A stretch of 64,000 bases of DNA from a candidate division FCPU426 bacterium (GTDB lineage Bacteria; Oederibacteriota; JAAXVQ01; JAUVAV01), in the NCBI GenBank assembly GCA_040756875.1, contig JBFLYH010000002.1:126526-190525 (forward strand), written 5' to 3'. The position numbers were made by a program. Shown here in pieces: positions 24,101-30,100 of the stretch (the first letter of the stretch is position 1; the number at the start of each line of letters is the position of its first letter).

Positions 24101-27100
24101 TTATTCTGCCTATATAGTAAAAAGCACTGTCATTTTCATCAAATCGCAAAACAACCTTTGAATCCGCCTTGAACAAAGGGCCGTTATTGAAAATAACATT
24201 CCGCAAATGATATACGATCGCCAAAGGATAAATGACCGTCGATCCCGGATGACCAAATATTCTCGGATGAAAACTCCCGGTGGAGACTATTCTCACTGCA
24301 GAATAGACGAATTCCGGTTCATCAAGGTCCGGAACATACGGAAGGTCTTTGCGAATTCCCCAGAGATGCATAAATGCAGAAAGAGCAAGTAATACTGCCA
24401 AGCATCTCGTTATATTTTTATGTGATTTTCCAATGATATTGTCATTCATAAACTGGCACTTTGCACCTTTCGTATCCGCATCGTTACAGTCGATTTACAT
24501 TTCTACCTATAATGAGCAATAATACATAACCGATTCTTAAAAATCCGTTTATCAAACACTGTGCCCGTTTCGAATTTAACCCTGAAATATGCATGATGAT
24601 TGCCAGCAGCAAGATCACTATATATCCCCATATTCGTCATTGAGAAAGGCGGGGCTCCTGATATGAAATAAGTAACGTTGGATTCATCAACCAGCGTGCT
24701 ATCAATATATATTCTCGTCGAAACAACAATATCTGTTTCATATGGATTAACGATGCTCTTCGATGAGATAAATATATCTGCCGAATCCTTCAAGGTAAAT
24801 GGGACATCGATAATTGTAACTTCGTTAGTATTGCTAATGATTTGCATATCAGTGAATCCAGACCAGCTCTCGGTCGCTGCGCCTCTGGCCACATTCAGTG
24901 CATACGGCACGCTGGTCAACGGTTGCCTGGGCGACATCTCGGCATCCGGGCTGACCGCAATCCCAATGTAATACTGCTGGGTGAAATCCAGATTCAACGG
25001 CCTGGCGGCATTCGATCCCAAAATGAGGCTGAAGTAACCGTTGGTTGTCTGGACCGAATAATTATCCGACCAAAGACTGCTTCCTCCTGACAGACTGTCG
25101 TATATGGTCGTAGTCACCGCATAGGTCCCATTGGCCATGGGATTCCCGTTTAAATCCGTCAGGCGGCCCTGGTAATTGACGGTTCTCGGCACATCGGCCA
25201 GGACATTCCCTGCCAATAACACAATCAAGCTTGCAGTTAATAAAGCCCTTCTCATTTTGTTCCCTCCCATCAAGGTTTTAGCGTATAAATGCGATTTTCT
25301 TGGTCACTTTAGTGATTTTCCCGTCGTAGCCTTTGGCTTTGATCCACAGCAAATACACTCCGTTGGCAATGCCGGTCGTATTCCAGTACCAATGGTTTTC
25401 GCCTGCCGGCATACTGTCCCAGTGTTTGGAAATAACCAGGTCATTGTTGATCGTGAATATTTTCAGTTCCACTTCGGCTGATTGCGCCAGGTGATAAACG
25501 ATATTCGCGCGGTTGCCGCGAATGGGATTGGGCGCGGCATAGACATACTCCAGGCTCAAAAGCTCGTTGCCGAAAGTCCGGATAGGCGTGCAGGTCACGG
25601 TCGGCGTAGGCGGCGGCATGAAGTATTCGTTGAAATATCCCGCCTGGATTGACATCGTGCGGCTCCAGCTCTGCCCGACCAGCGGCTCACCGCCCGAATT
25701 AAAGATTTGCCGCCCTGCGCCGGCTTGAGTATTGCCGACACTTTCGAGAACAAACTGGCTCAATCCATAGCTGGCAGACGATTGGGCGGCATAAAGTGGG
25801 GTATTTACTACCACCACAAGTAATAAAACTCCAAATATTCGAGCAAACATGAATTTCCCACCCCCATAAAATTGGGCTATTAACGCGATCGTTTTTTACC
25901 TTTGCTAGATTTATCCGCGGCTAAGCTTCCAGCCTCAAATTCTTTATAGTTTTCAATATGCAATCTAAAATAATCTTTATCAATGATTATATTTCCGCAT
26001 TCACATCCAATATTTCGGGCGGGTATTGAAGGTATAATAGAGCCACACTTTTTACATCTATAAAAAACCCTCTTCCCTTTTGGTGTTTCGCTGGTATCTG
26101 TGATTATTATTTTTAATGGTTTTTAATTTTCATTGATCATTTTTAATAACCTTATATCCAGTCTGTACCTCGTAGTATTCCATCACCATATTTCCGAAGC
26201 AATTCTGCATTTAATTCCAGAGCTTTAAAATATTGTTTATCGTCGGTGATAATTGCTTCGAAAGGAACATTAATGTGTTTTTTGATAACATCATAAAACA
26301 TTATAATATTATCATCTTTTCCAGTATAAGGTTCAGGATATTTCCCTCTTTCGCCCTTCATTACATAAAAGTAAAACGCATTGTCATGAATATCATATCC
26401 CATTTTAATTTGCCGATTCACAGCTCTATTCGTGTAAATGGCTATATATGTCATATTTTCCAAACGAATTTTTCTAATCTTATAATGATACTGTTCGACG
26501 AGAAATTTAAATTTCTTTCTAACATCTTTGAAATAATTTAATGTAGCAATTCCATGCATAGTTCGCCTCATATTGACGGGGACACCATGTTTAACAAATT
26601 AACAATAGTTCTTGCATACAATAATTATTAGTTACTTAAACCTTTTTCGCCTTTACATTACTTTGTGAATTTTCGTTCGAGTATCTTTCCAGTTTTAACA
26701 TCTATCCGATAGGCATCGCCATCCCAATTGCCGACCCACACATGCTTCTTCGCTTCATACAGATCCATATACGGACTGTCTTTATATATGTGGACCGTTT
26801 TCTCGATCTGCCAGATCGTTTCGCCATGCTCGTTTACACCGAAAACATTCTCATTATCATGAATGCCTATGGGTTTCCGTAGAAGCACAATATATACATT
26901 GCCTTTTTTAATGACTTTTTTAATTTCATATTTAAACTTCACTTTATTCTTTTTAAACAACATTTCTTTACCCTTAACAACGATTTGTAATTTCATTATT
27001 CTATTTTTCCTATTAATTTGAAATTGGTATCTGGTATTTCATTTTGCAATTCATACTGCACTCCTCCTCCTTTTCCCCAACCTTCTTGGGGCCCAGCAAT

Positions 27101-30100
27101 TCCCGTTCTCATTTTAGTACCCTTCGGCACTTTAACTTCAGATATTTGAGTTGGTATTTCTGGCAGGGCATATTTATCTTTAATCTGACGAGCTGACAAC
27201 CCTTTGATGTCTTCTTTACGCATGATCCAACTACTCGCCTGATTATTAGGTCCATGGACGCGAACAAATTTTTCTTCCTTGCCCGTAATAATTTCTTTAA
27301 CCTCGGTATTAAAAGCATACGGCGGACGTTTCCCCTGTGAAATATATACTGTATTCGCTTTATCCGACGATATCCATTTTGTTGCTGTAGTCCTAATGCT
27401 TTTCGTATTTTTATTAATGGTACTTCTGGCGCTTTTTTGAATTTCTTTTGCTATTGCCTTATCAGCTTGCTTAGCACCTTCTTTTATTGCTGATTTCGCC
27501 CCTTTGGCTGCCTGGATGCCGAGCTTGCCTGCATTGGCGACTTGTTTGAGCCTGCCGGCCACATACGAGACGCGGCCCGCTTCATTGGCCAGTATCCCCA
27601 CTGCCTTGCCGCCGGCTTTGGCCGCTGCTTTCCAATTGCCGTCCATCATTTCCCTGCCGGCCTGCTTAGTGTTCTTCCAGGCATCGGGCAGGTCCTGGCC
27701 GGCTTTGGGGATGTCGTAGATGCCTTCTTCGATGATATTGCGCGCCACGGCCCCGAGCTTTTTCGATTTGACCGACGCCTTGCCTGCCAGCTTTTTCAAC
27801 CCAGTGGCTTTATCCAGCTCCTGGTCCTGCGCATCCAGTTCACTCAACCGCTGTTCCATGCGGTCGCGGGATTCTTCGGTCTTCTGGTTGGCCCAGCGCT
27901 GGCCTGCCCAGAACGCATTATCCGCATTGGAATCGCCTGTGTAGCCTTCGGCCACCCCCTGGTAAAAGGCCAGGGTTTCCCCGGCCCGCTTGCCTGCAGC
28001 TTTAGCGGCAGCTTCGGCGCTGGTTTCCAGAAGGTTTTTGTTTTGGGGGGAAGTTGCGGCGCCGGAAACATCACCCTCCCCCTCTCCTCCCCTCGAGGAA
28101 GGGATCGCAGAGGAAGAACCACTTTCGTTGGGGCGAAGACCGGAAGAATCCCCTTCGTGCGGGGATAGATTGGAAGAGCGCCCTTTATTTGGGGGGACAG
28201 AGGCAGCCCCTGTATCTGCAGCGGCCTGTGAAGAATCCGACGAATTATATTCCTCGTCATCCCAGGCAAGCGCATCATTCCCGCTGTCAAGCGAGGCGCC
28301 GAGAATCACTTCTTCATCAGTCGGGATATGCGGCTGGGCATTGCTATCAGAAAGGCTGGCCAAAGGGTATGTGCCTGGCGGAGCTCGCAAGGGTGCGGAC
28401 CCACCATAACCTGACTGGAGATTGGTCGAAGCATACTGCGGGTAGTTGGCCGCACCTGCCGGATTGCCGGAATAACCGCTGGTCCGGGAATCAGCGGACG
28501 CGCTGTAATCTCCCACCTCCGCATGGCTGCCGCCGCGGCTGGCGTACTCCGGCCCAGGCGAGCCGCCGCCTCCTCCGCCTGAATTCCGGTTGGAGGCATT
28601 GGCCGGCGCGGTTTCGTTCCCTGGCAGGAATACATAGGCCGGGAACGTCTCGCTCACTTTGATTTCGCGGACTATGGGCACAATGGGCTGCAAATAGTGG
28701 GTGATGGTGTAACGCTGAACCTGGCCGTCGTAGGTGACCTCTGTCCGGCCCTTGCCCAGCACGCCGCAGATCTCCTCGGCCGTGCGCCGGGCTTCGTTGA
28801 GATTCATGTTGTTGATGGTTCCCTGGCGCGCAGCCTCGTAGGCCGCGACATACACGACGACCTTGGCCAGGCCCAGGTGGAGCATTTGCAGGCAGGCGGC
28901 GAACAGAGCGATGAGAATGGGAATAGCCAGGGCGGATTCCACCATGCCCTGCCCGCGCTGCGAGCGCAGGCAGGCCAGGAAGGAGGCGGTCCTGGGCGCA
29001 AGGGGTCTCATGCTTATTTAGACCGGATTCCCTTGGTTTCCATGCGTTTTGTTTGCCGGTTAGCCAGCTGTTCGACCTCGTCGATCCACTGGCTGATCAG
29101 GTTCAGGCCTTTCTGCCAAAAATCAGGATTTTCCAGGTCCACGCCGGCCATGGCCGCCAGCTTGACCGGGCTGTCCGACGAGCCGGCAGCCAGCAGGCGC
29201 TTGAAAGCCGGAACAAACTTTTCCCCTTGCTCCTTATACTGCCCGTAGAGCCCCATCACCAGCAGGTTTGCGAAATTATAAGCATAGACATAGAACGGCA
29301 TTTCCACGAGGTGCGGAATCGCGGCCCATTCCCAGGAAAACTCCTCCGGAATCCTTACCGCCTGCCCGAACATCAGTTCCAATTCGCGCCGGAAGAGCGC
29401 GCACCACTCCTCCGGGCTCAAGCGCCGCTCGCTGACCGCGGCGTGGGCCGCCCGCTCGAAACGCGAAAACATGTTTTGGCGGTGGCTGGTGGCGAAGGTT
29501 TCCTCGATCCGGCTGGTCAGCAGCGACTGGCGGACCAGCGGGTCCTGCTCCTGGGACAGCAGATGATCGGCCAGGATCATTTCGCCGAACACCGAAGCGG
29601 TCTCGGCCATGGGCAGAATGGCGTGGTAGCTGACCAGGGGCTGGTTGCGGCTGAGCAGGCTGTGGATCGCATGCCCCAGTTCATGCGCCAGGGTGGACAC
29701 GTCGCGCAGACGCCCGAGGAAATTGACCAGCACGAACGGCTTCACGTCCGGCGCCGAGGACGAGCAGAACGCGCCTCCGCGCTTGTTGGGGACAGCCGGC
29801 GCATCCACGTGCCGCTCCTGGAACAGGCTTTCGGCCAGCTGGCAAAAATCTTCGTCAAAGCCGCGGAACGCCTGCAGGACCAGGCTCTTGGCCTGTTCCC
29901 AGGAGTAAGTTTTTTCGGCCTCCGGCAGGGGAGCGTAAATATCCGCCAGGGTCAGGTCCGGCAGTCTGAGCAGTTTGGCTTTCAGGCGGTAGTAGCGCTG
30001 AACCAGAGGATACGAGGCGGTCGTAACCGTGTGCAGGGTGTCCACCAGCGCGTCGTCGAGGTCATTGTACGTGTTCATGACACTGATCGGCGATGCGAAC

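Follow-up and report, generated by a model that had tools for sequence, protein, structure and literature searches.

A TadE prepilin carrying a predicted C-terminal toxin tip

The window, by which we mean the whole 64,000-nucleotide stretch of DNA analysed here, comes from an uncultured groundwater bacterium and contains a gene for a 671-aa protein (26996..29011, minus strand), delimited as an open reading frame and by comparison with a paralogue on contig C1. Close relatives encode TadE fusions as well. The protein starts as a TadE prepilin, continues through a linker predicted to be disordered into a helical pre-toxin module and ends in a tip encoded by AT-rich DNA. The survey's finding of a TadE prepilin start holds: the N-terminus matches Pfam PF07811 at 23.6 bits against a cut-off of 22.9, and the Gly/Glu+5 site is intact; the NCBIfam TadE match scores under its cut-off. 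The sequence of the leader region (aa 1-25; 28937..29011, minus strand) features G20 and Q21 with E25 at +5, which we take to be a class III prepilin cleavage motif. Q+1 and E+5 are unchanged in 12 of 12 TadE rows of the alignment, and the database record P0008 begins at M23 and therefore lacks the leader. The mature pilin domain (aa 21-132; 28616..28951, minus strand), assigned from PF07811 and the secondary structure of the model, shows a long N-terminal helix, a second helix and three strands at a local pLDDT of about 50-72. It is followed by a Ser/Gly/Ala-rich acidic linker (aa 133-330; 28022..28615, minus strand) with a net charge of -15, predicted to be disordered from its composition and from a pLDDT below 50 across residues 130-339. 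The pre-toxin module (aa 335-495; 27527..28009, minus strand; alignment A3) matched no Pfam family and contains no strongly hydrophobic segment. As the full-length model is poor (pLDDT 43) and a fold search with it returned nothing at E<=0.001, the module carries no fold assignment.

The C1 paralogue encodes a TadE-positive protein of 651 aa with a different tip, and the two proteins are 72.7% identical over residues 12-509 with no match past that point. Identity rises to 92% in the pilin part (dN/dS 0.062), and the pre-toxin module has a dN/dS of 0.151. Synonymous divergence between the two paralogues of this genome is about 0.42-0.44, so they are not recent. The carrier is a genuine Tad minor pilin orthologue under purifying selection. 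A chance ORF or misassembly is ruled out by the paralogues, by independent genomes and by selection, and a T4aP or T2SS pilin identity by the Pfam TadE match together with the place before tadG. PilB/PilT-like ATPases are also encoded in this genome.

The tip has a predicted NAD(P)+ glycohydrolase fold

The tip (aa 536-671; 26999..27406, minus strand) was assigned by structure modelling and fold search. GC content over the last 120 codons is 39.7%, compared to 61.3% upstream. The tip model reaches a pLDDT of 89.9 and matches Tne2 in Foldseek at E 4.6e-4; superposition of the predicted model on Tne2 gives Z 11.4 and rmsd 2.2 over 103 aligned residues. Ranks 1-3 of the structure comparison are three bacterial NADase effectors, Tne2, Tse6 (Tne1) and Serratia Rhs1-CT (Z 11.4, 10.2 and 8.6), and the next row drops to Z 5.8. 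The tip thus has the Tne2-type fold that the survey had assigned to it, albeit at only 10-22% identity to these effectors and, unlike them, with no PAAR or Rhs delivery. What NADases of this kind have in common, according to the available part of PMC10539506, is an aromatic residue together with a glutamine that is strictly conserved. R584, W595 and Q652 are invariant in the tip alignment; Q652 aligns with the glutamine of Tne2's GGVQQ in a weak sequence match (E 2.1), and W595 is likened to Rhs1 Phe1386 by motif only. The model supports a Tne2-like NAD(P)+ glycohydrolase fold, for which hydrolysis is predicted.

Sequence searches of solved structures with the tip profile gave nothing significant, and a plasmid search with the tip gave no match. 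Two 'phage' matches were set aside as short unverified records resembling host DNA, and word-index searches, in which 167 and 103 candidates yielded no more than 3 and 2 proteins, are too insensitive for carrier counts. The tip of the C1 paralogue, which the survey likened to ART-HYD1/TreTu, matched no Pfam family at E<=1 and no sequence among solved structures at E<=10, so that this label is at most tentative.

Tips are exchanged behind a separable cassette

Residues 1-500 are common to eight protein clusters, as the survey had found, and the nine TadE fusions bear at least six tip types: TNT, RES, EndoU, Tne2-like and two unnamed. The TNT, RES and EndoU matches exceed the Pfam cut-off, and Ntox46 was found as the tip of a non-pilin carrier. 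Exchange is directly visible in pairs of proteins. In P0010 and P0011 the pre-toxin modules are 95% identical and the tips unrelated, and in P0004 and P0012 the modules are 37% and the tips 77% identical. Two copies of the congener G010, which has three as had been noted, are 98-99% identical in pilin and linker, 47% in the module and 21% in the tip. At every one of the 7 loci measured, GC content drops past the module. Each of the nine TadE fusions has an open frame, with duplicated copies in this genome (2; G000) and in G010 (3), and purifying selection acts on the module (dN/dS 0.04-0.15) and on RES tips (dN/dS 0.09).

The survey described the N-terminal part as one shared body of about 500 aa. 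The sharing and the differing tips stand, but this body is two separable units, a pilin of about 115 aa and a mobile cassette of linker, pre-toxin module and tip. The cassette also sits on TadG, in one relative (G009) as previously reported, on a signal-peptide protein of more than 2,400 aa and, in a distant form, on signal-peptide-only proteins. Near its start lies a short motif, [ED][VIL][AGV][DNQ]Y (aa 165-169; 28505..28519, minus strand), identified by a pattern search of carriers and present once in 13 of 13 carriers examined, the pattern having been drawn up after seeing them. At this motif two carriers of this genome share 36 bp at 81% identity.

The pre-toxin module is known from 16 representative proteins, and in complete ones it always lies 130-220 aa ahead of the C-terminus. 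Its occurrence in 5 of 99 phylum genomes was reproduced, with the amendment that it is pilin-borne in only 3 of those 5. Its non-pilin bearers are G029, the G005 type and four complete signal-peptide proteins. A pilin-specific module is ruled out by its presence on signal-peptide carriers; it works with carriers that lack a pilin and therefore does not need a pilus. Pilin fusions as such occur in just 3 of 99 phylum genomes, which belong to a single uncultured lineage, and in four proteins from metagenomes; TadG-like genes occur in 46 of 99. Among 32 TadG-like matches outside the order, five with long open frames revealed no toxin extension by eye. A scan of a genome collection found the congener's 3 loci only, and a metagenome scan found 2 loci, both non-pilin. 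In the pre-toxin tree the giant carriers have no firm place among the TadE carriers, and support in the TadE tree is too weak for dating the fusion. Two further toxin carriers in this genome share parts with the TadE fusions.

Immunity-like genes follow the toxins

The fused gene ends in TAATG, in which its stop overlaps the start of a 112-aa gene (26658..26996, minus strand). The AT-rich, immunity-like genes described behind both fusions are indeed there: the 112-aa gene has 35.7% GC and the adjacent 139-aa gene 30.7%, and on C1 a 153-aa ORF downstream of the paralogue has 30.1%, compared to about 60% for the genome. Such a small low-GC gene lies behind each TadE fusion for which flanks are at hand (5 of 5). 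The 112-aa protein (P0002) is DUF7957-like (Atlas 0.97), with a partial beta-propeller look. Two unrelated carriers of this tip, one an M48 carrier (34%, E 4e-8) and the other from a Listeria record (22%, E 5e-7), have a homologue of it in the next position, which makes it the probable cognate immunity protein for the window's tip; on three other M48 carriers the same tip is followed by a different family.

The 139-aa gene (26152..26571, minus strand) encodes a protein (P0003) that is 43% identical (E 4e-36) to the product of a gene directly behind another tip type, and this pairing recurs in a separate tip cassette. A search of this genome for that tip gave no match at E<=1e-3, and going by this likeness the 139-aa gene is probably an orphan immunity gene for a tip absent from searches of this genome. 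Behind RES tips, the following genes are 60% identical. Promoter and terminator scans of the locus were uninformative, most matches falling on the opposite strand of AT-rich DNA.

The locus retains the context of a tadE gene

Upstream of the fused gene lies an oligopeptidase F gene (29014..30999, minus strand; PF01432/PF08439) that serves as a synteny marker, and ORFs of similar size and start were seen by eye ahead of plain tadE in G003, G004, G005 and G009. On the other side, the window encodes a TadG-like large minor pilin of 380 aa without a toxin cassette (21410..22552, minus strand; PF13400, alignment A6). Plain TadE precedes TadG in eight other family genomes, bearing out the earlier observation in relatives, and the fused gene, which occupies that place here, is the orthologue of this plain tadE. 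Searches of G000 and G010 found no plain copy of the orthologue, only fused ones, and the C1 copy and two of the three G010 copies sit away from tad genes.

Further pilus genes in the window encode a prepilin peptidase of the TadV/CpaA type (34142..34669, minus strand; PF01478), a 74-aa Flp major pilin (34672..34896, minus strand; PF04964/PF04021, E 1e-5 to 4e-5) and a second, Flp-like pilin of 69 aa (34906..35115, minus strand), recognised by eye from its GQ..EY motif and without a Pfam match at E<=0.05. Besides the fused TadE, the window encodes a plain TadE/F-like minor pilin (36191..36643, plus strand; PF07811), which belongs to a different subfamily and is kept across the order. The Tad machine genes of this genome comprise secretin, CpaB, TadZ-TadA, two T2SSF genes, Flp and the peptidase. 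A complex prediction for the TadE pilin domain with TadG scored 0.04 (mark 0.32), which weighs neither way.

A model for toxin delivery by the Tad pilus tip

The conserved N-terminus, the swapped tips, the GC step at the junction and the candidate immunity genes, both cognate and orphan, give strong support to the polymorphic toxin reading, which we regard as very likely. To the other half of the survey's proposal, a Tad minor pilin as the toxin's means of delivery, we give moderate confidence: we infer an antibacterial toxin that is exported and displayed by a Tad (type IVc) minor pilin and delivered at the pilus tip. In terms of processing and assembly, the prepilin would enter the inner membrane with its cargo lying in the periplasm, prepilin peptidase would cleave after Gly20 and the pilin would enter the TadE/F/G tip complex. 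Export would follow as the extending pilus drives the tethered linker, pre-toxin module and tip out by way of the secretin and on to an adjacent cell, where the module may assist entry of the tip into the cytoplasm and the window's tip would exert its toxicity by destroying NAD(P)+. Immunity of the producer would come from the overlapping 112-aa gene, and the 139-aa gene may guard against a tip that relatives use. Recombination would exchange tips behind the pre-toxin module, and entire cassettes behind the pilin. In favour of pilus delivery, the cassette was acquired by two different tip pilins, TadE and TadG, and TadEFG have been proposed as tip complexes with modular C-terminal domains in the part of PMC12075869 at hand. 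Counted against it are a 540-aa cargo that has to pass the secretin on its pilin, the non-pilin carriers of the module, the narrow range, the copies distant from tad genes and the missing hydrophobic segment, which leaves target entry without an explanation.

Alternatively, the pilin could do no more than anchor the protein in the membrane and direct its export, or it could act as a piston subunit like those of type II secretion. The cargo would then be severed in the periplasm, for which the conserved motif is one possible site, and would leave by another route, such as in vesicles, on lysis or by passing freely through the secretin. The module's ride on signal-peptide carriers fits this, as does the 200-aa disordered linker, which would be easily cut, and a single short motif at the cassette start is what a shared processing site would look like. 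However, the 36-bp match suggests that the motif may instead be a recombination joint, a mere anchor would need neither the whole pilin fold, conserved as it is (dN/dS 0.06), nor E+5, and two tip pilins have acquired the cassette; we consider this explanation unlikely, though the strongest of the rivals. We think it improbable that the fusions arose recently, as a side effect of cassettes being shuffled among the lineage's secreted toxins, with the pilin continuing to form pili and its cargo either trimmed off or kept as a reservoir. The narrow range, plain TadE in eight family members and the parts shared with two other toxin carriers would agree with it, but all nine fusions are open and copies are duplicated, module and RES tips are under purifying selection, the G000 paralogues are not recent and the small low-GC gene is retained. 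Least probable, by a little, is use in predation on unrelated prey, like the Myxococcus Kil system, more than in kin competition, since cognate and orphan immunity candidates and fast tip turnover suggest conflict among relatives with the same arsenal, even though NADases act on any cell and Tad-like pili kill prey on contact, with one tip suspected of toxic activity in the portion of PMC12075869 available.

Relation to known systems

The fusions resemble polymorphic toxin systems such as Rhs, CdiA, LXG and MafB (Zhang et al. 2012, PMC3482391) in their conserved trafficking N-terminus, pre-toxin region and swapped C-terminal toxin, in their adjacent and orphan immunity genes, and in the common tips TNT, EndoU, RES and Ntox46. 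They differ in that the carrier is a type IV prepilin and the pre-toxin module has no Pfam family. The words 'pilin', 'pilus', 'pili' and 'Flp' are absent from the first 300,000 characters of PMC3482391, and the same four words have 0 matches in the available part of 10.1101/2021.10.19.465003, whose trafficking list there includes no pilin; our literature search found no pilin-borne polymorphic toxin. The DUF7957-like character of the immunity candidate is a possible difference from Tni2, Tsi6 and RhsI1.

In type VI secretion, the specialised ('evolved') VgrG, PAAR and Hcp effectors are likewise structural tip subunits with a toxin domain added, and relatives have plain versions, but these effectors belong to another machine; here the cargo would begin in the periplasm and ride on the pilus. 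The Myxococcus Kil system and TadEFG tip complexes share with our locus a Tad pilus, minor pilins with C-terminal modules and a link to killing, as described in the available parts of PMC8460266 and PMC12075869. In those accounts the Kil toxins have yet to be identified, with separate proteins or some activity of one tip under consideration, and no immunity genes are described, whereas here pilin and toxin form one covalent chain. In Vibrio cholerae TcpB-TcpF secretion and the T2SS, minor pilins or pseudopilins bring in cargo that a type IV filament then exports, but according to the same portion of PMC12075869 that cargo is bound non-covalently, is not polymorphic and lacks an immunity gene.

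We give roughly even odds to a broader proposal, in which Tad pili here are contact-dependent delivery machines with the tip pilins TadE and TadG as effectors, like specialised VgrG/PAAR effectors, the module is a cytoplasm-entry domain and the motif a universal joint for plugging the cassette into pilin or non-pilin exporters. The present work defines a pre-toxin module that had no name, proposes immunity to a Tne2-like NADase as a candidate role for DUF7957-like proteins and matches a second family of immunity genes to a tip that is likewise unnamed. The means by which Tad pili kill on contact are an open question, the Myxococcus toxins being unidentified in the accounts at hand. Since a toxin of predictable activity is encoded within a tip pilin, beside its likely antidote, pilus-borne delivery becomes testable with few genes. 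Rival cells may receive toxins by way of the pilus itself and, if so, type IV filaments would join the known delivery routes of polymorphic toxins.

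A tadE orthologue carrying a probable toxin cassette

On the reverse strand of the window, positions 26996-29011 hold a 671-aa ORF with a TadE domain at its N-terminus (barely above the Pfam cut-off), followed 3′ by two small ORFs of 112 and then 139 aa. The survey's finding of a TadE start, a paralogue on contig C1 with a different end and adjoining small AT-rich ORFs proved real. The two fusions are 72.7% identical over residues 12-509 and differ at their ends, and the GC content of the window gene is 61.3% through the shared part and 39.7% in the last 120 codons. The 112-aa gene, whose start overlaps the fusion stop, and the 139-aa gene have 35.7% and 30.7% GC, in a genome of ~60%. 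The leader ends at Gly20 and Glu25 occupies +5, the pattern of type IV prepilins; Gln+1 and Glu+5 are invariant in all 12 aligned TadE rows. In the database record of the fusion (P0008) the gene call begins at Met23, inside the pilin helix, so that the prepilin leader is hidden. The full-length model is poor (mean pLDDT 43) and was therefore used only to outline four parts: the pilin (aa 21-132), an acidic, Ser/Gly-rich linker predicted to be disordered (133-330), a helical region (335-495) and the tip.

A plain TadE of ~120-135 aa immediately precedes tadG in 8/10 other genomes of the family, and in G003, G004, G005 and G009 it comes after an ORF resembling the oligopeptidase F gene found upstream of the window fusion. 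The window gene is thus that tadE with a cassette (linker, helical region and tip) added. Searches of the source genome (G000) and its congener G010 gave fused copies only, with no plain copy of this orthologue found. The window tadG lies 3.6 kb past the second small gene. The window also encodes a prepilin peptidase, a pair of Flp-like pilins and another TadE-like gene of the plain kind; C1 adds the secretin, CpaB, a gene that fuses TadZ to TadA, and two T2SSF genes. G009 instead keeps TadE plain and has the cassette on TadG, where it ends in a TNT tip with 61% identity to the one on a TadE fusion.

Several further features of these loci were recorded. TadZ/CpaE-like and TadA ATPase domains share one 700-aa protein at L003:12080-14182 (-), as they do in G006-G008. 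TadG of the window (21410-22552, -) has a ~100-aa helical C-terminal extension common to G010, G004 and G005 and absent from G001 and G006-G008. A small zinc-ribbon-like protein with a long Asp/Glu tail (31637-32077, -) is kept near pepF in G010. Around tadG runs a lower-GC series of membrane glycosyltransferase-like genes (17999-25850, -; DUF2079 twice, PMT_2), which may serve to glycosylate pilins or the cell surface.

Shuffling on both sides of the helical region

Residues 1-500 are common to eight protein clusters, which with one further G010 copy make nine TadE fusions. Their tips comprise one Tne2-like, one TNT, two RES and one EndoU domain, three of the type of P0004 and P0012 (with P0011 a distant relative) and one of another unnamed type. 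Shuffling occurs both behind and ahead of the helical region: P0010 and P0011 have helical regions 95% identical and unrelated tips, whereas P0004 and P0012 have tips 77% identical and helical regions 37% identical. Two G010 copies keep 98% identity across the pilin and 99% across the linker, but fall to 47% over the helical region and 21% over the tip. GC falls past the helical region in all seven loci measured. A simple counting method applied to the one pair of G000 paralogues puts dN/dS at 0.062 in the pilin, 0.151 in the helical region and 0.40 in the linker.

A pre-toxin module shared with other carriers

The count of five among 99 phylum genomes previously given for the pre-toxin body was reproduced with a helical-region profile; the region is pilin-borne only in G000, G010 and G009. 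In G029, where TadE and TadG are plain, the helical region ends a signal-peptide protein of >2,400 aa that is cut by the contig end. The G005 copy is nearly identical to P0026 and L046, which have identical modules and different tips and whose N-terminal part aligns with the G029 giant (34%, E 1e-49). Run against 1.84 billion representatives, the profile matched 16 proteins. Two of these are TadE fusions and one is the TadG fusion; the others are P0026, a piece of a G010 fusion, six further fragments, one spurious match and four complete proteins that lack a pilin and begin with what resembles a signal peptide (E 2e-14 to 3e-6). These four (P0031-P0034) are ~600 aa long, with a distant form of the module and variable tips. 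The helical region stands 130-220 residues ahead of the variable C-terminus in every complete protein and is a new pre-toxin module rather than part of the pilin. That it is pilin-specific is ruled out by the G029, G005-type and signal-peptide carriers. A short motif occurs once near the cargo start in 13/13 carriers examined, by a pattern defined post hoc from them; in its 11-residue form it has exactly two occurrences in the genome, one in the C1 fusion and the other in the genome's own giant carrier.

This giant (G000:C2:1032402-1039181, +) is a 2,259-aa signal-peptide homologue of the G029 protein, without the module and with a lipase-like (HSQG) C-terminal domain. A 166-aa gene of 37% GC with a hydrophobic start comes after it, and the giant is probably a fourth polymorphic toxin of the genome. 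Another carrier (L002:8638-10479, -; G000:C2:553637-555478) joins an M48 peptidase, PT-TG and a Tne2-like tip as in the window; a 258-aa gene of 37% GC lies behind it, and relatives occur in G086, G090 and G095. No name for this M48-peptidase class was found.

A predicted NADase tip and immunity candidates

Modelled alone (8-row alignment, pLDDT 89.9), the window tip is closest in structure to three bacterial effectors that are NAD(P)+ glycohydrolases. Tne2 ranks first (Foldseek E 4.6e-4; Z 11.4, rmsd 2.2 over 103 residues), ahead of Serratia Rhs1-CT (Z 10.2) and Tse6 (Z 8.6); fungal NADases and TNT come next. An Atlas feature search returned unnamed clusters (0.93-0.95) and a TNT cluster (0.93), and a structure search returned clusters bearing RHS and LXG domains. 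In each of the two tip alignments (8 and 6 rows) Arg584, Trp595 and Gln652 do not vary, and a weak match at the sequence level (E 2.1) places Gln652 opposite a glutamine of Tne2. PMC10539506 describes two features common to these NADases, a glutamine that is strictly conserved and an aromatic residue. Together, fold and residues make NADase activity likely for the modelled tip. The tip of the C1 paralogue had no match in Pfam or among sequences of solved structures.

The 112-aa protein resembles DUF7957 (Atlas score 0.97, TM 0.91). Its homologues are encoded immediately after the same tip on two other carriers: one with an M48 peptidase, in G086 (34%, E 4e-8), and one of a different kind, in a record labelled Listeria phage (22%, E 5e-7). 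That record (L048, OR847722.1) is 1.8 kb with the toxin-immunity pair only, and looks like host DNA. A different family of 220-258 aa stands behind three other M48 carriers of this tip type, one of them in G000, which gives this tip two partner families. In L046, the gene immediately after another tip type is 43% identical to the 139-aa protein, and this pair recurs as a separate cassette in L047; the L046-type tip has no match in G000 at E<=1e-3. The 139-aa gene is therefore a candidate orphan immunity gene, added here to the survey's finding. In L047 (2420-3210) the lone tip and immunity cassette lies beside transposase genes, and downstream of it comes a full toxin whose tip is 65% identical.

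Delivery and implications

The locus is very probably a working polymorphic toxin, whatever its route. For that route, we lean towards delivery by the pilus tip: the prepilin would be processed and enter the TadE/F/G tip, the pilus would take the tethered cassette out to a neighbouring cell, and the module would aid passage of the toxin tip into the target cytoplasm. PMC12075869 proposes that TadEFG assemble into tip complexes whose C-terminal domains are modular, and that one tip in Myxococcus has a toxic activity, its source being unknown. Pilus delivery is favoured because the whole pilin is conserved, no plain copy was found and two different tip pilins have captured the cassette; against it count that the module, on other carriers, needs no pilus and that it contains no strongly hydrophobic stretch. 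The only carrier with a lipase-like tip lacks the module, which fits an entry role for cytoplasmic tips, as a single case. That the pilin is an anchor or export signal only seems rather unlikely: the module rides elsewhere on signal-peptide carriers without a pilus, but conservation of the whole pilin speaks against this. It is improbable that the fusion is a by-product of shuffling, and slightly less probable still that pilus-borne toxins serve predation.

In the openly accessible literature searched, one paper combined polymorphic toxin with TadE, and there the phrase stood only in a reference; nothing relevant was found on pilin or TadG with toxin and immunity, nor among the titles listed for broader terms. 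The words pilin, pilus, pili and Flp are absent from the first 300,000 characters of Zhang 2012, whose large supplement could list such fusions, from the main text of the Nachmias preprint, and from the main text and nine supplementary files of Pandoomain 2026. The locus is real and well supported as a polymorphic toxin with immunity candidates of both the cognate and the orphan kind. Its pilin fusions have a narrow range, three of the 99 phylum genomes. On the literature covered, the Tad minor pilin is a new carrier for polymorphic toxins, and this may plausibly be the first example in which a toxin forms part of a Tad tip pilin.
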